Positions 13,891 through 35,975 of a stretch of DNA of 40,148 nucleotides are shown piece by piece. The notes beneath the pieces are model-generated. The model had not been told where the DNA came from. It saw nothing but the letters and a program-made list of their open reading frames with translations, and made no database searches. Position 1 is the first letter of the stretch. Each line of letters begins with the position of its first letter. Position numbers and translations under genes: made by a program. This DNA is from Burkholderiales bacterium. Its GTDB lineage: Bacteria > Pseudomonadota > Gammaproteobacteria > Burkholderiales > JAEUOS01. The stretch is from the NCBI GenBank assembly GCA_031362905.1, contig JANLTL010000540.1, positions 1 through 40,148 of the forward strand, in the 5' to 3' direction.

Positions 13891-13975
13891 GCTCCAGACG
13901 TCGTGCAGGCGACGCACTGGCAAACACTTCCCGACGCCTCAAGCACCATTTATTCCGCACACCAAGGTGATCTCA

Positions 13976-15235
13976 ATGAACTCCTCCTCTTTCGCTCCCA
14001 GCAAAAAAATCAGCTCCTTCCATCCGCCCCAGCGCACCCTGCTTGGCCCCGGCCCATCAGAAATCAACCCGCGTGTGCTGGCCGCTTCCAGCCTGCCCTC
14101 AATCGGCTATCTCGACCCGATTTTTGTCGACATGATGGATGAGTTGAAGCAACTGCTGCGCTACGCCTACCAGACCAACAACCAACTCACTTTTCCCTTG
14201 TCCGGCCCCGGTTCGGTCGGCATGGAGTCGTGCTTCGTCAACATGGTCGAGCCCGGCGAAAAAGTCGTCGTGATGAAAAACGGTGTGTTCGGCGGCCGCA
14301 TGGTGGAAAACGTGCAGCGTTGCGGCGGTGTGGCCGTGGTGGTCGAAGACGCCTGGGGCGAGCCGTGCGACCCGCAAAAACTCGAGGACGCGCTCAAGAA
14401 GAATCCCGACACCAAAGTGGTGGCGTTCGTCCATGCCGAAACCTCGACCGGCGCGCAATCCGACGCCAAAACCCTGGTCGCCATCGCGCACAAATACGGC
14501 GCGCTGACCATCGTTGACGCGGTCACCTCGCTGGCCGGCACGCCGGTCAAGACCGATGAATGGAACATCGATGCCATTTATTCCGGCTCGCAAAAATGTC
14601 TCTCGTGCGTACCGGGCCTGTCACCGGTGTCCTACAACGAGGAAGTCATCGCCAAGGTCAAAAAGCGCAAAGACACCAATCGCGTGCAAAGCTGGTTCAT
14701 GGATTTGAACCTGGTGCTTGGCTATTGGGGTGACACCACCCGCACCTATCACCACACCGCTCCGATCAACAGTCTGTTCGCCCTGCACGAAGCGCTGCTG
14801 ATGCTCAAGGAAGAGGGTCTGGAGAACTCGTGGGCGCGCCACCAGCGCCACCACACCGCATTCAAGGCCGGCATGGAAGCCATGGGCCTCAAGTTCCTGG
14901 TCAAGGAAGCCTACCGCCTGCCGCAGATGAATGCGATCTGCATTCCCGAATCGATCCAGGCGCGTGAAGCCGAAGTGCGCAAGACCTTGCTCAACGAATT
15001 CAACATGGAAATCGGCGCCGGCCTCGGCCCGCTCGCCGGCAAGATCTGGCGCTTCGGCTTGATGGGTTACTCGTGCAAGCCGGAGAACGTCATGCTGTGT
15101 CTCTCAGCGCTGGGTTCCGTATTGATGGATATGGGCCACACGGTCAAGGTCGGCGAGGCCGAAGCGGCGGCCCACTCGGCCTATGCCTCAATGCATGCCT
15201 CGGCCGCCCAGGCCAAGCTGCGCGCAGCGGCGTGA
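13976..15235 (+). CDS. Class V PLP aminotransferase (serine/alanine--glyoxylate aminotransferase family)
   Basis: LLGPGPSEINPRVLAA near the N-terminus and the PLP-lysine motif YSGSQKCLS. I chose the ATG at 13976, which has AAGG 8 nt upstream; the track start is the GTG at 13967. Confidence 0.85.
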   Translation: MNSSSFAPSKKISSFHPPQRTLLGPGPSEINPRVLAASSLPSIGYLDPIFVDMMDELKQLLRYAYQTNNQLTFPLSGPGSVGMESCFVNMVEPGEKVVVMKNGVFGGRMVENVQRCGGVAVVVEDAWGEPCDPQKLEDALKKNPDTKVVAFVHAETSTGAQSDAKTLVAIAHKYGALTIVDAVTSLAGTPVKTDEWNIDAIYSGSQKCLSCVPGLSPVSYNEEVIAKVKKRKDTNRVQSWFMDLNLVLGYWGDTTRTYHHTAPINSLFALHEALLMLKEEGLENSWARHQRHHTAFKAGMEAMGLKFLVKEAYRLPQMNAICIPESIQAREAEVRKTLLNEFNMEIGAGLGPLAGKIWRFGLMGYSCKPENVMLCLSALGSVLMDMGHTVKVGEAEAAAHSAYASMHASAAQAKLRAAA

Positions 15236-15308
15236 TGGCGGCACGGCTCCCCTTGCCACGCTGCACCTTGCCGCCACGCGCGCAATGCGCGCTCCGCGCT
15301 GACTGAAC

Positions 15309-16259
15309 ATGGCAAGCAGCGGCGACCGCACCAAGGAGCCAACGCAGCATGTGCCGCAAGGCGCTGCTGCGGAAGACTGTGTGGTGTTGTTCGCTGATGT
15401 CGCCGGCAGTACCAAGCTCTATGAGGCTTTCGGCGATGCGGTCGCCAAGAAATTGGTCGACGAGGTATTGGCTGCACTCACCATCATCACGCGCCGTCAC
15501 AGCGGCCGCGTGGTCAAGACCATTGGTGATGAAGTGATGTGTGTCTTCACCGACGCTGCGCGCGGCTTTTACGCTGCAGCCGACATGCAGCAGAAGATCG
15601 ACTCGATGCCGGTGGTGGGTGGCAGCAAACGGCGCATTCGCATCGGCTTTCATTCCGGGCCGGTGATCGAGGAAAAAGGCGACGTATTCGGTGACACCGT
15701 CAATACCGCCGCGCGCATGTCGGGCCTCGCACGCGGCATGCAAATCATGACTTCGCGCGCCACGGTCGATGCGCTGCCGTCGAACCTGCGCGGCCGCACG
15801 CGCAGTATTGCCTCGGTCTCGGTCAAGGGCAAGACCGATGACGTAGCGGTCTGCGAAGTGCTATGGCAGGATGAGGACGACCTGACAATGACGGTGGCCG
15901 CACTGTCGGCGACCACGATCCAGGCCGAGCTCGCCCACCAGATCGTCCTGCGGCACGAGGGTACCGAAATCACCCTCGATGCCGGCCGCACCAGCGCGGG
16001 GATGGGGCGTGACCCGGGCAGCGACATCGTGATCGCCGATGCCAAGGCGTCACGCCACCATGCCCGCATCGAAAAGCGCCGTGACAAGTTTTTTCTCGCC
16101 GACCAAAGCACCAACGGCACTTTCGTGACCTTCAATGGCGAGCGCGAAATCGCCCTGCGGCGCGAGGAAATCATGCTGCGCGGTACCGGGCAAATCCGCT
16201 TCGGCCACAGTGCCACCGAGGGCTCCGGTGAAACAGTTGACTTCACCCTCGGGGCCTGA
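15309..16259 (+). CDS. Class III adenylate/guanylate cyclase fused to a C-terminal FHA domain
   Basis: Cyclase motifs VVLFADVAGSTKLYE, GRVVKTIGDEVMCVF and GDVFGDTVNTAARM supply the metal-binding Asp residues, the Lys next to the second Asp, and the transition-state Asn/Arg. FHA signature: GRDPGSDIVI ... ASRHHARI ... DQSTNGTFV. There is no TM segment and no other sensor domain. Confidence 0.85.
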   Translation: MASSGDRTKEPTQHVPQGAAAEDCVVLFADVAGSTKLYEAFGDAVAKKLVDEVLAALTIITRRHSGRVVKTIGDEVMCVFTDAARGFYAAADMQQKIDSMPVVGGSKRRIRIGFHSGPVIEEKGDVFGDTVNTAARMSGLARGMQIMTSRATVDALPSNLRGRTRSIASVSVKGKTDDVAVCEVLWQDEDDLTMTVAALSATTIQAELAHQIVLRHEGTEITLDAGRTSAGMGRDPGSDIVIADAKASRHHARIEKRRDKFFLADQSTNGTFVTFNGEREIALRREEIMLRGTGQIRFGHSATEGSGETVDFTLGA

Positions 16260-16330
16260 GGCTCGGTACCCGGGCACGCGCCGCGCTGCCCCGTGACGCG
16301 CCTGCTCGCGCATTCCATCGCACCGCCACC

Positions 16331-19300
16331 ATGTCATCACCGCCACCCGCTGCCGTGCCCGACAACCCGCGCGAAGAGTTATCGGTTGAACTCAAGCGCC
16401 AAACGTCCGAGTTTCTGGCGCGGGTGCAGGTCAAGCGCACCGAGTCGATCAACTTGCAAAAAGCGCATGCCGAGGAGTTGAAGACGGCCGTGCTGGCCGA
16501 GGCGCAGGCGCGGCGAGCACGTGATTTGGCAGTGGCGCGCGTAGAAAAAACCCGGAGTGAGCGTGCCGCCGCGGAGGAAGCAGCAACCCGCGCTGACGCG
16601 GAACTTGCGCAATTGCGCGCCAGATTGGCGGAGACCGAGCGGCGCATCCAGACCGCGGGCACGGCGCCGGTGGTCAATCCGGTAGCGGCAACCGGCACTC
16701 CCTCTGCGACAGCAGCGCCCGCCCCCCTGGACCGTCAGGTGCAGGCTGCGGAATTGCGCCGCGCCACCCTCCAAGTGAACGAACTCGAAGCACGCCTGCG
16801 CGAGCTGACCAGCCAACGCGAGCAAGTCGAGCATGAGCGTGACCAGTTGGCCCAGGCCGCGCAGGCAGCCGCACGAGAACGCGCCCAGATGCAAGAGGCC
16901 AAGATCCAGATGGAACGCGAGCACGCGCAGCTCGCTGCAGCGTACGCACAGTCGGGGCCGGCGCAAGAACAGCTTGCCGCCACCTTGCGCGCGGCAGAGG
17001 CGGAGCGTGACCGGTTGGCCGCTGACCTGCGCGCCGCTCAGGCAGAACGTGCCGAGATCACTTCTGCCATGCGCAACGTCGAGCAACAGCGCGACCGCTG
17101 GGTCGTGGACAAGCTCCGGGCCGAGACCGAGGGTGCGCGCCTGGCTGCCGCCCTGGGCAGCGCCGAACAAGAACGCGACGCAGCCCAGGCCGCGCGCATC
17201 GAAGCTCTCGCCGCTGCGTCTGCCCCCGCTGCAGTGGCAGATGACGCTGTCGCCGCTGGCGCGTCCTCCGGCTCCACGGCGCAGCAGGCGGCCGCGGCCC
17301 CTGCCACGCTTGGCGTGACCCAAAGTCTCCAGGTCATCGCCGAGAGCTATCAACCCGGCGCGCCTTCTGCATTGGGCGGCCTTAGCCTCGCGTTCCCCAC
17401 TGCACAAGGGACCGCCGAATTGCAGCAAACGGAAGCAGCCATCGAAGCCGAGCGTGCCAAGGTTGCGGCAGCAGCGAAGAAGCTTGAAGAAGCTGTGCGC
17501 GCGCGCCTTGCCACCGAGCAACGGGTGCGTAACGAAACGCAAAAACTTGAACTGGCAGAGCACGAACTGGCAAAGGCCGAACAGGAGCAGCTAAGGATCG
17601 CCGAAGAGGTGGAGCAGGAAAAATCCCAGCGCACAAGCCTGGAACAGCAACTTGCCGATGCGCGCACTGGCCGCGCGGAGCTGGACCAATTCCTGACCGA
17701 CACCGCCGCCGAGCACGATCGCAAAAAGCGAGAACTTCAAAGCCTGCGGGCACAGACTGACGCCACACTGGTCGATCTTGCGCGCGCCAACGGCGAACTC
17801 AGGGAAACCGGCGTGCGCCTGCTGGAAGCCCGCACCGCGCAGGAGACACACGCACCTGCCTTCGGTGCGGCGAAAGGGGCATTGGCCGATACGCTTGCGC
17901 AAGTCGCTTCTCTGGAGAGCGATATCAAGCGCGAGCGCACCGCCCTGAGCGCTGCGCAAGAAGACCTAAGCAAGGTGCGCAGTGAAGCCGCGCAGCAACA
18001 GGACGAACTGGCGGCGGCCAGGATAGAGCAAGACCGTGCGGCGGTGTCGCTCACTGCGGCGCGTACCGACGCCGCTGCGGCTGCGCGCGACGCTGCCACA
18101 GTGCGCAGTCAGGTGGAAGCGAGCCGTGTTGCACTTGCCGCTTACGAGGCGCAAGCGGCCGATCATCAAACCCGGCTGACCGAGGCGCAAACGCAGGCTG
18201 CCGCGCTCGAATCGGGCTTGCGCCGTCAACGCGCCGCACTGGACACGATGCGCAGTCACGTGGTGGCCGTACGCGCCGAGCGCGCGCAGGCGGAGCAGGA
18301 ACTGGCGGATGCAGCAGCGGCAAAGCAAGGCGCCAAAGCCATACTGGATGCTGCCCGCGAACAGACCGCCCAAACGGCACGCGAAGCAGCAGCGGCGCGC
18401 GCGCGCCTTGACGCAGACCGCGGCGTGCTGAACGACCATGAAACCAAGGCCGGCGCGCTGAAGGCGGCACTGGCCACGGCGCTGGCCACCTTATCGGGCC
18501 TTGAGGCCGACACTGCGCGTGAACGCGAGGCCCTCACTGCCGCAGAGCAGGCGCTCGATGCGGTCAAGGCGCGCCGCGCCGACGCTGAAACGCGCCGCGG
18601 CGAAGCCGATGCGCGGCGCGCCGAGTTGCAATCGCAAGTACTCGTCGAGCAACGCGCGCTGGACGAGCTGACACGCCAGATCAATGGCTTGACCGCGCGC
18701 AAAGCGGAGCAGCAGGCGATCCTGGACGCCGGCGAGAGCACGCTCAAGGAAACCGCTGAGCGTACCAGCATGATTGAGGCGGCGCGCCGTCAACGCGAAG
18801 CACAGCTCGTCGCGGCAGCGGAACAGAACGCAGCAATGGCGCGCGACATGCGCGCTGCCATCAGCGAAAGGGACGAAGCACAGCGGCAGTTGGATGGCTT
18901 GCGCGCAGAGCGGCAGACACTGGAAGAAAACGCGGCACGCGAGCGCGGCGCGGCGGCGCGCGAGCACAGCGCAGTGCAAACCGGACGCGCTGGCCGCAAG
19001 CGCGCCGAGATCGAGTTTGCCGCGCTGCGACAGGAACATGCGGACGGAGCAGCGCGCCTGGCCGCCGCCAATGCGGCGCTGGAGGATCTGCGCGCCGCCG
19101 TCACAGCGATAGAGCAGCAGCAAGCGGCCGCCGGCAGCGAACTGGCAGCCCGCGAGTCTGCCCTCGACACCCAAGCGCAGCAATTACGCGCCCTGGAACA
19201 AGAACACGCACAATCAGAGCAGGCAACTGCGGCAGAACACGAGCGCGCAGCCCTGGCCCGCACGCTACTCACCACGGCCCAACAGGCGCTCGCCGAAACC

Positions 19301-20953
19301 GAGGAGGCCACCCGGAACGCCATCAGCGAACGGACCAGCGTCAGCCACGCCTTGCGTGCAGCACAGGGGCAGCGCGACAGCCTGCTTGCGCAAATCGCCG
19401 CCGCCAAGGCCGAGAGTGACGCTGCACAAGCCGCTTGGCAGTCAGCGCGATATGATGCGGCGGCCCTGGCACGCCGCGTCACACTGGAACAGGAGGAGAG
19501 CGCCCATCTGGACACGCTGCTGCAATTGTCGGCAGCGGAACGGCGTGCACTCGATGCTGATTACGCGCGCGCGCGACTGGCACAAGCGGCGTTGCGTGCA
19601 CAGTTGGCTGCGACGGCTGCCGAGGCGGCGGCGGCGGCAACCACCGCGACGCTCAATGCAGCGAGCGCAGCGCGCACGAGCGATGCGCTGCTGGCAGAGC
19701 ATGCCGCTGCCGCAGAATCAGCCGAACGTGCGCTTGCCGAAGCACTGCTGCGCGTGCAAACTGCCGAAGCAGCGCGTCAACAGGCAATTGCACAAGCTGA
19801 ACACATCGCGTCTGCGCCACCGGACACCTCCGCTCTCGACGCAGCACACAAGGCCGCTGCCGAAACCGCCGCCACGGCGGCGCAACAGACCGCCAACAGT
19901 CTCGCCGAAGCCGCTCTGGAGGCCCTCAAAGAACGCGAAGACACGCTCCGGTCAGAACTGCGTACGCGCGAGCAAGCGCTGCAACAGCAACATGCCGACA
20001 CCGAATCGGCGCTGCAATCGGCTGCCGCAGACTTCGCCCAAATCGAGGCGCGCCTGATCGAAACCGAAGCCGCTCAACAGGATGCCCAGACACGTCTCGA
20101 TACGGCGCGTACGCGCGGTGCAGCCGCGCTGGACGTGCTCAATCACGAAGAAGCCGCCGCCGCCGAGATCGAGAAAGACCTGGCGGCTGCCAGGGCGCGC
20201 ACCATCGAAGCACGTGCCACTTTGCAAATGGCGAGCGAGCAGACGGCTCTCAGTGAGGAAGAGGCGCGCGAATTTGCCGCCGCCGCGCATGCCCGCGTAG
20301 CCGAAGCCACAGAGGCGGGAGAAGCGGCGGAGGCGGCACGATCGGCAGCCGCACAGGCCGTTGCCGAGGCTGCCCGGATCGCCGCAGCCGACGCCGCACA
20401 GATTGCCTCGGCAGAGGCCGCTCATCAAGCCGCCAAGGCCGAACTTGAACGCTTGCAGCGCGAAATCGAACTTGCCACCCTTGACTCTGCCGCCGCGCGC
20501 AACCGGCTTGCACTCGAACGCTCTGACGAAACCACCGCCCGTGTGGAACTGAAGCAAACACTCCAACGCAAGCCGGTCCGTGTCCGTGCCGCGTCAGCGG
20601 AACGCCGCTGGGCACGCTATGGCGTGCCCGCAGCGCTGGCGGCCCTGCTGGCCGCCGTCTATTTCATCCCGCGTGTGCTGCAGCCGCCGCAAGATGTCCC
20701 ACAGGCGCAGTCCACACCCCGCGACGCCGCAACTGCGGCTTCGCGCCCAAGCCCCCCCGCTTCTGCGGCCCCCGCAACCGCCATGGCCACGCCCGTCGTG
20801 ACACCAGCGGCGGCTCCCGGATCGAACCCGGCATCGAACCCTTTGGCTGCGCCTGCAGCGGCAGTAGTCACGCCGCTCTATTCAGTCGACGCCAACGCGC
20901 GCCGCGACCTCAAACTCACCTATGAGTTGAAACCACGTCAGCGCAAGCCTTAG
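16331..20953 (+). CDS. Giant (1540 aa) tail-anchored coiled-coil protein of unknown function
   Basis: Uninterrupted 4.6-kb ORF dominated by Ala/Glu/Arg/Gln/Leu/Thr/Asp with very few Pro or Gly. The exceptions are two Pro/Ala/Gly linkers (about nt 16652-16729 and 17213-17416). One hydrophobic helix, GVPAALAALLAAVYFIPRVL (20621-20680), is preceded by the basic stretch RKPVRVRAASAERRWARY. A 90-aa Pro/Ala/Thr-rich tail follows. No N-terminal signal peptide. Confidence 0.8.
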   Translation: MSSPPPAAVPDNPREELSVELKRQTSEFLARVQVKRTESINLQKAHAEELKTAVLAEAQARRARDLAVARVEKTRSERAAAEEAATRADAELAQLRARLAETERRIQTAGTAPVVNPVAATGTPSATAAPAPLDRQVQAAELRRATLQVNELEARLRELTSQREQVEHERDQLAQAAQAAARERAQMQEAKIQMEREHAQLAAAYAQSGPAQEQLAATLRAAEAERDRLAADLRAAQAERAEITSAMRNVEQQRDRWVVDKLRAETEGARLAAALGSAEQERDAAQAARIEALAAASAPAAVADDAVAAGASSGSTAQQAAAAPATLGVTQSLQVIAESYQPGAPSALGGLSLAFPTAQGTAELQQTEAAIEAERAKVAAAAKKLEEAVRARLATEQRVRNETQKLELAEHELAKAEQEQLRIAEEVEQEKSQRTSLEQQLADARTGRAELDQFLTDTAAEHDRKKRELQSLRAQTDATLVDLARANGELRETGVRLLEARTAQETHAPAFGAAKGALADTLAQVASLESDIKRERTALSAAQEDLSKVRSEAAQQQDELAAARIEQDRAAVSLTAARTDAAAAARDAATVRSQVEASRVALAAYEAQAADHQTRLTEAQTQAAALESGLRRQRAALDTMRSHVVAVRAERAQAEQELADAAAAKQGAKAILDAAREQTAQTAREAAAARARLDADRGVLNDHETKAGALKAALATALATLSGLEADTAREREALTAAEQALDAVKARRADAETRRGEADARRAELQSQVLVEQRALDELTRQINGLTARKAEQQAILDAGESTLKETAERTSMIEAARRQREAQLVAAAEQNAAMARDMRAAISERDEAQRQLDGLRAERQTLEENAARERGAAAREHSAVQTGRAGRKRAEIEFAALRQEHADGAARLAAANAALEDLRAAVTAIEQQQAAAGSELAARESALDTQAQQLRALEQEHAQSEQATAAEHERAALARTLLTTAQQALAETEEATRNAISERTSVSHALRAAQGQRDSLLAQIAAAKAESDAAQAAWQSARYDAAALARRVTLEQEESAHLDTLLQLSAAERRALDADYARARLAQAALRAQLAATAAEAAAAATTATLNAASAARTSDALLAEHAAAAESAERALAEALLRVQTAEAARQQAIAQAEHIASAPPDTSALDAAHKAAAETAATAAQQTANSLAEAALEALKEREDTLRSELRTREQALQQQHADTESALQSAAADFAQIEARLIETEAAQQDAQTRLDTARTRGAAALDVLNHEEAAAAEIEKDLAAARARTIEARATLQMASEQTALSEEEAREFAAAAHARVAEATEAGEAAEAARSAAAQAVAEAARIAAADAAQIASAEAAHQAAKAELERLQREIELATLDSAAARNRLALERSDETTARVELKQTLQRKPVRVRAASAERRWARYGVPAALAALLAAVYFIPRVLQPPQDVPQAQSTPRDAATAASRPSPPASAAPATAMATPVVTPAAAPGSNPASNPLAAPAAAVVTPLYSVDANARRDLKLTYELKPRQRKP

Positions 20954-20988
20954 CACGGATCGTCCGGCCCCGCTAGCAGCGTACCCAC

Positions 20989-21013
20989 AAGAACCGCTTC
21001 AGGAGCGGTTCTT
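20989..21013. terminator. Hairpin between convergent genes (probable bidirectional terminator)
   Basis: AAGAACCGCT-tcagg-AGCGGTTCTT is a perfect 10-bp stem. It lies in the 85-nt gap between the stop of the giant ORF (20953) and the stop of the oxidoreductase gene (21039). The T-tracts are only short (TTCTT). Confidence 0.45.
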
Positions 21014-34772: not shown

Positions 34773-35975
34773 GTGTCATCGCGCTACGCATTCCTCATGC
34801 TGCGGCGCCGCTTTCTGGGTCACGCCGTCTTGAGCATTTGCGCGGCGCCGCACCTGGCCGGCGCGCAAAGCGGCACACACCAAGGCGCTGCGCTTGGCGC
34901 CAACTCGGTGCCGGCCACGGGTGTCGCAGCGGGAAGCACTCGCGCCAGTGCCGTGCGGATGACGCTGGCGGCCGCTGCGTTGGTGCGCACCCTGAGTGCG
35001 CCCAACGCCCGCCGTGCACTGCTGGCGATTGACGCTCCCGAGCGTACCCGTTGGCGCTACACGCCGGGCCATCGCGCCGGCCTGACACTGGGCGAGATGA
35101 ACGCTGCCGAGCGCGCTGCGGTACAGGACTTGCTCGCTGCGGCGCTGTCCGCAGTGGGCCGCGAAAAGGTAACCAACATCATCGAACTTGAGCTCGTGTT
35201 GCGCGAACTGCAAGGTGATTTTCGCGACCCGGATCGCTACACACTGGCGCTATTCGGCACGCCCGGCGCAACACTCTGAGGCTGGCGCTTTGAAGGGCAT
35301 CATCTGTCGCTCAACTTCACGCTGGCGGGAGACCGCGTTGCGCTTGATGCGCCCAGTTTTCTGGGTGCCACACCGGCCACCGTCGCCGGTGGCCCGAAGC
35401 GTGGCCTGCGTGTGCTCGGGGAGGAGGAGGACCGCGCCTGGGCTCTGCTGCACGCGCTCGATGCAACCCAGCGTGACCAGGCAGTGATCGATTCACGCAC
35501 TTACGGCGATATCGTTAGCGGTACCCCGGCCCGGCTCGATCCGATGAAGCCGGAGGGCCTGCGCGCGGATCGCTTGAACCCTGCACAGTTTGCACTGCTC
35601 CAGGAACTAATCGCCGTATTCGCCGGCACGTTTAGCGCCGACTTGCGCGACGCAAGGCTGGCGCGCGCCCAAGCCGGCGCGGCGGACACCCTGTATTTTT
35701 CGTGGGCCGGGTCCACCCGGAGGGGCGGACGCTACTACTACCGGATTCAGGGTGCGCAATTTTTGATCGAGTTTGACGCGTCTCAAGACGGCGGCAATCA
35801 CTTGCACTCGGTGTGGCGGGATTTTGCGAGGGATTTCGGCGCACACCTGCAAGGAGCGAACCAAACCAGTGACGCCACCAAGTCTCGGCCGGGTACGCCA
35901 TTTGGACGCGACCTGCTGCGTGACCACTACGCTGCGTTTGACCGGCCAGGGCTGCGTGCAGCGCACCGGCACTGA
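34773..35975 (+). pseudogene. DUF3500 family protein with a Tat-type signal, interrupted by one in-frame TGA
   Basis: The ORFs at 34773-35279 and 35412-35975 are in the same frame, and the only stop between them is the TGA at 35277-35279. Reading through gives ...RDPDRYTLALFGTPGATL*GWRFEGHHLSLNFTLAG...YYYRIQGAQFLIEFDASQDGGNHLHSVWRDF..., the DUF3500 core as I recall it. The N-terminus MLRRRFLGHAVLSICAAPHLAGA has an RRxFL twin-arginine motif. Confidence 0.7.

Follow-up and report, generated by a model that had tools for sequence, protein, structure and literature searches.

Two consecutive genes on the forward strand of contig JANLTL010000540.1 of a Burkholderiales bacterium (assembly GCA_031362905.1), whose whole 40,148-nt stretch was analyzed and is hereafter called the window, encode a putative FHA-regulated nucleotide cyclase (gene 1) and a very large coiled-coil protein restricted to one clade (gene 2, the giant; Table 1). 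An earlier reading of this DNA from its letters alone (the original prediction) had proposed that the two genes form a signaling and scaffold module. Both open reading frames (ORFs) are real at the positions then given, and the pairing of the cyclase with an orphan, scaffold-like neighbor was confirmed as an observation, while its interpretation is partly supported. The family to which gene 1 belongs is mostly encoded beside a Hanks-type Ser/Thr kinase, and in the clade of the window the giant has taken the place of the kinase operon.

A cyclase with an FHA reader and its giant neighbor

The catalytic domain of gene 1 scored 68 bits against the Pfam model PF00211 (cut-off 21.9), and the motifs FADVAGST, KTIGDEVM, and GDTVNTAARM, on which the original prediction had relied, are present. 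Six catalytic residues were invariant in an alignment of 22 family sequences (60-88% identity): D30 and D74 for metal binding, K70 and D125 for the substrate (adenine type), and N132 and R136 for the transition state. Ma1120 was the top PDB profile match (E 1.6e-19); D30, D74, and R136 align with it directly, N132 lies within the canonical GDTVN motif, and K70 and D125 correspond to a Lys and an Asp in Ma1120, i.e., the adenine-specifying pair and not the Glu/Cys type for guanine, which predicts ATP as the substrate of gene 1. The AlphaFold2 (AF2) model (mean pLDDT 75) has two domains joined by a disordered linker (aa 187-207), and its cyclase domain was superposed by Foldseek on Ma1120 and Rv1900c at TM scores of 0.83-0.87. 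Judging from the Pfam match, the six residues, the PDB profile, and the superposed fold, the gene 1 product is by sequence and model a complete class III, adenylate-type cyclase, as had been proposed, with an intact FHA reader. It resembles the minimal mycobacterial cyclases of the Ma1120/Rv1900c type (PDB 4wp3, 4wp9, 5d0e, and 1ybu; about 30% identity, same fold and canonical residues), including a compact catalytic domain of ~160 residues that would require a homodimer. Unlike these enzymes, it has a C-terminal FHA domain and a Thr-bearing N-terminal tail, and belongs to a family linked to Hanks kinases.

The phosphothreonine (pThr)-binding residues of the FHA domain, which had been noted as GR, SRHH, and NG, are present and were also invariant across the 22 sequences (G233 and R234; S248, R249, and H251; N269 and G270). 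AF2 gave an FHA beta-sandwich with pLDDT 81-93 over aa 211-316, and the domain is functional-looking by its residues. Its scores against the NCBIfam models of FhaB/FipA, TagH, and OdhI were all under their cut-offs. At the other end of the protein, AF2 models the first 20 residues as disordered, and this tail, with Thr8 and Thr12, is a candidate phospho-acceptor and self-ligand of the FHA domain. Of 120 cyclase-FHA family members, 108 have a Thr among their first 14 residues. The conserved Thr stands at about position 8, and the motif around it in the kinase-clade cyclases is (D/E)xTQx(I/V/A)(E/D)P. The tail Thr also resembles the self-phosphopeptide ligand of Bdellovibrio DgcB, which is discussed below.

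The giant is 28% Ala and 67% A+E+R+Q+L, with its charge near balance (233 acidic vs. 194 basic residues). The original prediction could place it in no characterized family, and this was borne out: no Pfam, NCBIfam, PADLOC, or PDB match was found beyond sub-threshold coiled-coil matches (SMC over aa 646-923, and Fez1), and PDB sequence searches with aa 1-560 and with the C-terminal 160 aa gave nothing meaningful. A single-sequence AF2 model of aa 1-700 gave helices at aa 13-111, 132-206, 212-296, 358-501, and 509-699, and disordered linkers at aa 112-131 and 297-357. SMC proteins were considered as relatives and rejected: the giant shares with them long helical rods capable of antiparallel packing and the weak coiled-coil match, but this match reached 45.8 bits against an NCBIfam cut-off of 567, there was no SMC_N or hinge match in Pfam and there were no ATPase heads, and the giant differs in bearing a membrane helix and a periplasmic tail.

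Four elements are conserved in the giants, namely the N-terminal helix, a ~230-aa unit, the membrane helix, and a C-terminal motif. The N-terminal helix is 43-86% identical across the clade, with RRxRDLA invariant. The unit is present once in the window and in loci L081, L001, and L086, twice in L087, and three times in L082 and L083; it contains a very strongly conserved helix, ELQxTEAAxxAERxKxAAAAKKLEEAVRARLAxEQR, and later LKRERxAL. Ahead of this helix, it opens with a leader of the consensus G-(V/L)-T-Q-(S/I)-(L/M)-x-V-L-A-x-S-Y-x-P, whose core (V/L)TQ(S/I)(L/M) is kept in 8 of 10 aligned units and which, in the window giant, falls in the segment with pLDDT<50 (aa 297-357). The TQx(L/M) of the leader resembles the TQx(I/V) of the kinase-clade cyclase tails. 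Motifs with Leu at +3 from Thr are of the type preferred by many FHA domains and bacterial Hanks kinases, which makes Thr330 a candidate both for phosphorylation by a kinase and for docking of the FHA domain.

The membrane helix follows the pattern RW..G-hydrophobic-VPR in all orthologues. Eight Arg/Lys are found in the 17 residues before it and one Arg just after it, so that the rod, the N-terminal bulk of the protein, is predicted to be cytoplasmic. Because about 90 residues extend beyond the helix, the label "tail-anchored" used in the original prediction is not strictly right. The segment aa 1442-1540 (99 residues) contains 18 Pro and 23 Ala, and the C-terminal motif, PLYxPDxxARRDLxLSYELK, which follows a variable Pro/Ala spacer, is kept in seven of seven full-length giants. 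No significant tandem DNA repeats were found in gene 2 of the window. The AT skew is strongly positive (0.20-0.36) and the GC content raised (0.66-0.69) at 16000-21000, across gene 2, because the gene is rich in Ala, Glu, Gln, and Arg codons (GC at codon position 1, 0.79); this is not a replication signal.

The 71-nt gap between the two genes contains no promoter or terminator consensus, and no clear Shine-Dalgarno sequence is visible in it. That the pair looks like an operon holds true as an appearance, since the gap has no unusual structure and is short (23-182 nt from the cyclase stop to the giant start) in all ten loci in which a giant was found in context. Gene 1 and gene 2 are probably co-transcribed.

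Table 1. Genes and features of the cyclase-giant locus, in window coordinates (nt)
Feature	Position	Strand	Details
Class V aminotransferase gene, directly upstream of gene 1	13967-15235	+	Pfam Aminotran_5, E 4e-23
Gene 1, soluble class III adenylate cyclase with C-terminal FHA domain (predicted)	15309-16259	+	316 aa, ATG start
Disordered N-terminal tail of gene 1, with Thr8 and Thr12 (in T-Q-H-V)	15309-15368	+	pLDDT 33 (AF2)
Cyclase catalytic domain, gene 1 aa 21-176	15369-15836	+	Pfam PF00211 Guanylate_cyc, E 8e-19
FHA core, gene 1 aa 232-299 (fold ~aa 208-316)	16002-16205	+	Pfam PF00498, E 2e-13
Gene 1-gene 2 gap, 71 nt	16260-16330	+	Without terminator-like structure; RNA fold z +0.53
Gene 2, clade-restricted coiled-coil giant	16331-20953	+	1540 aa, ATG start, 4.6-kb ORF
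N-terminal helix of giant, aa 13-111	16367-16663	+	Most conserved part of the family; AF2 helix
Conserved ~230-aa unit, aa 326-560	17306-18010	+	phmmer units in all giants
Unit leader motif GVTQSLQVIAESYQPGAPS, including Thr330 with Leu at +3	17312-17368	+	Disordered linker
Single membrane helix, aa ~1430-1450, YGVPAALAALLAAVYFIPRVL	20618-20680	+	Kyte-Doolittle best window 1.94 at aa 1432
Pro/Ala-rich tail, about 90 residues	20681-20950	+	After membrane helix; predicted periplasmic
C-terminal motif, aa 1515-1534 (PLYxxDxxARRDLKLTYELK)	20873-20932	+	
Perfect hairpin, 11-bp stem	20989-21013		Minimum free energy (MFE) structure, z -2.13

Kinase linkage of the cyclase-FHA family and its replacement by the giant

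The cyclase-FHA family is large, with 7396 matches at E<=1e-10, the 120th best of which is still 64% identical. A scan of one genome per species gave at least 564 loci; the best 80, which come from Burkholderiales, Rhodocyclales, Gallionellaceae, Accumulibacter, and some Gammaproteobacteria, were kept, and their neighbors were classified by homology (tblastn with the kinase from beside the L084 orthologue). A Hanks kinase was encoded downstream of the cyclase-FHA gene in convergent orientation at 25 of the 80 loci, downstream on the same strand at 14, and upstream at 12, so that the kinase lay within about 3 kb at 51 loci; at three more, on short contigs, the kinase C-terminal domain alone was visible, making 54 kinase-linked loci in total. 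The others comprised four with a low-identity kinase match at 3.5-5.9 kb, 16 kinase-free loci flanked by 3 kb or more on both sides, five kinase-free loci on contigs too short for judgement, and one (L001) with a giant coiled-coil ORF as the neighbor. No Hanks kinase was found at any locus of the giant clade, the window included. The original prediction had looked to consistent synteny with a long coiled-coil ORF as its test; this fails for the family as a whole, since 79 of the 80 loci have no following coiled-coil ORF and 54 stand beside a Hanks kinase, but within the clade of the window it succeeds, the giant following the cyclase-FHA gene in all ten cases.

The typical kinase (~795 aa) consists of a kinase domain, a Thr/Pro-rich juxtamembrane linker, one membrane helix, and a ~420-aa periplasmic domain. 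At 21 of the 80 loci, as well as in L084, L089, and L090, it closes an operon whose first two genes are u233 and u262 (e.g., L084:11042-15075 and L089:8962-12891), which encode signal-peptide proteins (about 230 and 262 aa, respectively) of no family, apart from a faint CsgG-like match of u262 (E 4e-4). The family-wide kinase linkage therefore points to a conserved logic in which periplasmic sensing is relayed through a Ser/Thr kinase, pThr, and the FHA domain to cyclic AMP (cAMP), and it strongly reinforces the pThr-FHA premise of the original prediction. A literature search gave no paper on kinase-coupled FHA-adenylate cyclases of Proteobacteria and no account of the four-gene module of u233, u262, kinase, and cyclase-FHA. 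This kinase-linked module is widespread and conserved in Beta- and Gammaproteobacteria, including the environmentally important Rhodoferax, Accumulibacter, Dechloromonas, Gallionella, and Methyloversatilis, and the cross-talk between eukaryote-like Ser/Thr kinases and cyclic nucleotides in bacteria is little characterized.

Giants were found in the window, in L001 (a Burkholderiales metagenome-assembled genome [MAG], CANJDH01, RH-20apr16-384; 1248 aa), L081 (1522 aa), L082 (1450 aa), L083 (1495 aa), L086 (1328 aa), and L087 (1508 aa), and on cut contigs in L091, L092, and L093. All ten lie directly after a cyclase-FHA gene on the same strand. When the giant was searched by tblastn against the 80 species loci, L001 was the sole match. 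Exhaustive phmmer searches with aa 1-560 against 1.84 billion representative proteins gave seven matches, all of them fragments of 76-274 aa, and the two with retrievable context also follow a cyclase-FHA gene; this search missed full-length orthologues known from contigs, perhaps owing to the HMMER composition filter, and the size of the giant family may therefore be underestimated. A profile search with the giant N-terminus yielded two short fragments only, a scan of Joint Genome Institute (JGI) metagenomes with N-terminal patterns of the giant found no relative, and a word-indexed protein search with the full giant gave no match, its candidate lists being saturated by low-complexity proteins. 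Judging from these searches and contexts, the giants form an orphan family that is bound to the cyclase-FHA context.

In a neighbor-joining tree of the cyclase-FHA proteins, the giant clade was monophyletic and lay nested amid convergent-kinase clades, closest to L002/L003/L089 and L084. The window clade and L084 have in common the upstream order of short-chain dehydrogenase (SDR), methyltransferase, glutathione S-transferase (GST), poly(A) polymerase, epimerase, lytic transglycosylase (SLT), aminotransferase, and cyclase genes, and synteny breaks exactly 3' of the cyclase, where L084 has the kinase operon and the window has the giant followed by indolepyruvate oxidoreductase (IOR) and Lrp genes. 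The monophyly, the nesting, and the exact break show that the giant took the place of the kinase operon at this locus once. Derivation of the giant from the operon was tested, and no significant similarity to the kinase, u233, or u262 was found. The FHA residues are intact in the giant clade, and a pThr ligand would therefore still be required there.

Gene 2 is a genuine gene under purifying selection: its dN/dS (ratio of nonsynonymous to synonymous substitution rates) was 0.18 against the 1522-aa orthologue, and it is conserved in frame in its relatives. L082 (L082:11028-15380) and L083 (L083:11028-15515) encode identical cyclases; between their giants there are 6 substitutions over 1450 aa and two in-frame expansions, one of (AVPS)3 and one of an 11-unit (QAA/QTA) tract, so that the length of the rod is quick to change.

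Two observations concern loci without an adjacent kinase. One Burkholderiales MAG carries tandem cyclase-FHA paralogues (L005:8870-9811 and L005:9956-10903) with an ankyrin-repeat protein encoded downstream. In addition, a GGDEF-EAL protein is encoded convergently downstream of the cyclase-FHA gene at some kinase-free loci, directly adjacent in L039 (L039:6241-9417) and one gene further in L014 (L014:11798-14161), which hints at links between cAMP and cyclic di-GMP (c-di-GMP) in those lineages.

A possible docking scaffold and its alternatives

The gene 1 product may be the cAMP-producing output of a Ser/Thr-kinase pathway, in which binding of the FHA domain to a phosphothreonine peptide would set the activity or the location of the cyclase. 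Across the family, the input would come from the receptor-type Hanks kinase next door, which has a large periplasmic domain and is usually accompanied by the two secreted proteins. In the window clade, gene 2, probably co-transcribed with the cyclase, stands instead of the kinase operon, and its product is predicted to be a cytoplasmic rod of roughly 1,400 residues made of helical segments, anchored in the inner membrane by its C-terminal helix and extending a short Pro/Ala tail into the periplasm. Most likely, it would serve as a docking scaffold anchored in the membrane: T-Q-x-L in the disordered linker of the giant would be phosphorylated by a kinase encoded elsewhere, and the FHA domain of the cyclase would bind the phosphorylated motif, so that cyclase monomers would gather on the rod. 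Because class III cyclases are active as dimers only, this gathering would switch on or localize cAMP synthesis. We put the probability of this whole reading, an FHA-gated cyclase docked by a membrane-anchored giant with a kinase-fed cAMP output, at roughly 0.4. A further step, which we consider distinctly improbable, is that the FHA domain was re-targeted from the receptor kinase or its own tail to a new rod bearing one to three phosphorylatable T-Q-x-L units, with the number of units and the length of the rod varying among strains. If so, this would be an undescribed compartmentalization of bacterial cAMP, with a phospho-switchable filament setting the number and place of membrane cyclase dimers, and the conserved tail of the giant may couple the rod to the periplasm.

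The scaffold that the original prediction had envisaged is plausible from the strict adjacency and from the conserved T-Q-x-L in a disordered linker; it is unproven because the synteny of the whole region is conserved in the clade as well. Several observations weigh against docking. The adjacency is confined to one clade in which SLT, aminotransferase, cyclase, giant, and IOR genes are all syntenic, and shared ancestry could therefore explain it. The T-Q-x-L Thr is absent in one repeat copy of L083 (L083a), and Ala is found at +3 in another (L083b). The dN of the giant is 0.18 vs. 0.01-0.06 in its neighbors (3-15 times), and its length varies between near-identical strains; a structural or surface-exposed role would account for this as readily as a scaffold would. 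In addition, the FHA domain could have as its ligand the conserved Thr in the N-terminal tail of the cyclase. As the original prediction had stated, no kinase, PP2C phosphatase, cyclic-nucleotide-binding, or phosphodiesterase gene was found by Pfam scans among the larger ORFs of the window, and tblastn with the kinase query together with Pfam scans found no Hanks kinase in the whole 40 kb. We take seriously, while leaning somewhat against it, the explanation that the two genes are neighbors by descent only, the cyclase being under a kinase encoded elsewhere and the giant being a lineage-specific structural coiled coil (cytoskeletal, envelope-tethering, or polar-organizing) without a cAMP role, which landed at the breakpoint when the kinase operon moved or was lost. 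The clade-wide synteny makes the linkage non-independent evidence, the break from the kinase-type relatives lies exactly 3' of the cyclase, the giant evolves fast with variable repeats and has no signaling domain in Pfam or NCBIfam, and the conserved motif at the end of its periplasmic tail points to envelope contact. Mere descent sits less easily with ten of ten giants being co-oriented immediately 3' of the cyclase with short gaps, with the finding of no giant in another context among the 1.84 billion representative proteins (phmmer, fragments only), with the giant filling the exact slot of the usual partner of the FHA domain, and with the conserved Thr motif in its disordered linker. Even if the giant is unrelated to the cyclase, it represents an uncharacterized, fast-evolving, membrane-anchored family of coiled-coil proteins.

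The ligand of the FHA domain could also be the cyclase itself. A kinase would phosphorylate Thr8 (or Thr12), and the FHA domain of one subunit would bind the tail of the other, stabilizing an active head-to-tail dimer; the giant would then be not the FHA ligand but a downstream or parallel component, or unrelated, which is compatible with a scaffold role. A direct precedent exists in DgcB (PMC6733907). The widespread tail Thr with its kinase-clade motif, the disorder of the gene 1 tail in AF2, the flexible interdomain linker, which would permit docking, and the kinase adjoining the cyclase-FHA gene in most of the family all agree with this explanation, which is a serious alternative although we regard it as rather unlikely. 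Features of the giant clade weigh against it. Pro at +3 is unusual in FHA ligands; it is exactly what the cyclase tails of the giant clade have (TKEP, TQEP, TIEP), and the Thr itself is lost in several of its members (P0018, P0019, P0021, and P0022). The Pro at +3 and the lost Thr fit, as weak evidence, a shift of ligand towards the giant, which carries TQxL motifs, while the self-tail may be degenerating in this clade. Two other explanations have very little left in their favor. That gene 2 is a chance ORF in GC-rich, skewed DNA might be suggested by the dozens of overlapping long spurious ORFs that high-GC DNA yields on both strands of the region, by the lack of database families, and by the lack of an obvious Shine-Dalgarno sequence for gene 2; it is effectively refuted by the 4.6-kb frame being kept in at least seven relatives, including the N-terminus, the unit, the membrane helix, and the C-terminal motif, by the dN/dS given above, and by strain-level indels that stay in frame. 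An anti-phage pair of the Pycsar type (cyclase plus membrane effector), to which the membrane helix of gene 2 and weak partial PADLOC matches to PycC (best, 40.8 bits over cyclase aa 19-87) might point, was rejected: the PycC matches are due solely to the common class III fold, the giant lacks both a cyclic-nucleotide-binding domain in Pfam and a PADLOC match, K70 and D125 predict ATP and not the pyrimidine specificity of Pycsar, and the stable housekeeping neighborhood, syntenic across genera and kinase-linked family-wide, is unlike a mobile defense island.

The natural swap of kinase for giant gives a testable handle on whether the FHA ligand is the kinase, the cyclase's own tail, or the scaffold, and it also bears on the localization of bacterial cAMP production.

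Precedents and other features of the window

Hanks kinases and FHA proteins are known as partners in mycobacteria (PknB with FhaA, FipA, and GarA) and in type VI secretion systems (PpkA with Fha1/TagH), the FHA protein being recruited through pThr. The cyclase-FHA family as a whole is alike in being an FHA protein encoded beside a membrane Ser/Thr kinase; it differs in that the output is a nucleotide cyclase and that in the window clade the giant is in the place of the adjacent kinase. In DgcB of Bdellovibrio bacteriovorus, an FHA-GGDEF diguanylate cyclase, the FHA domain binds the enzyme's own phosphorylated, disordered N-terminus (PMC6733907). Gene 1 resembles DgcB in being a cyclase for a nucleotide messenger with a consensus FHA domain as the only sensory domain and Thr in a disordered N-terminal tail, while DgcB has a GGDEF domain, makes c-di-GMP, and carries its FHA domain at the N-terminus, whereas gene 1 is of class III, is predicted to make cAMP, carries the FHA domain at the C-terminus, and has the giant neighbor as an alternative candidate ligand. 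By analogy, DgcB and the Hanks-kinase/FHA partner pairs appear to be the closest mechanistic precedents.

FimV has a periplasmic N-terminal LysM domain, and its cytoplasmic part lies C-terminal to the membrane helix. In Pseudomonas aeruginosa, FimV is reported to promote the activity of the adenylate cyclase CyaB (bioRxiv 10.1101/116954). Like FimV/HubP, the giant is large, is predicted to be anchored in the inner membrane with a long part of it in the cytoplasm, and is proposed to activate or localize a class III cyclase; it differs in that its cytoplasmic rod is N-terminal with only about 90 residues in the periplasm, and CyaB is without an FHA domain. The FimV analogy drawn in the original prediction stands as a functional likeness only. 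As a member of the FimV/HubP group, the giant was rejected: there was no LysM or FimV match in Pfam or NCBIfam and no sequence relationship, its near-balanced charge differs from the acidic cytoplasmic region of these hub proteins, and the predicted topology, with its placement of the helix, is opposite.

The aminotransferase gene upstream of gene 1 is 98% identical to its L081 orthologue (dN/dS 0.024). It lies directly 5' of the cyclase-FHA gene in the giant clade and at several kinase-type Burkholderiales loci, and may share the transcription unit of gene 1. The gap between the two genes (15236-15308) contains two stem-loops, including the palindrome GCGCGCAATGCGCGC (MFE -28.9 kcal/mol, z -1.5), which could be an attenuator or a protein-binding site. 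At the other end of the locus, the original prediction had described the hairpin 3' of gene 2 as the only terminator-like one. The hairpin is real and lies between gene 2 and the convergent IOR-family gene, but it has no proper T-run and was not picked by a T-run terminator scan, which listed other, weak sites, no more than expected by chance; it is a possible bidirectional terminator. Further downstream in the window, two consecutive same-strand ORFs (34773-35279 and 35412-35975) correspond to the two halves of Pfam DUF3500, the first ORF to profile positions 3-103 and the second to 153-296, which suggests that a gene is split or frameshifted or that there is an error in the sequencing.

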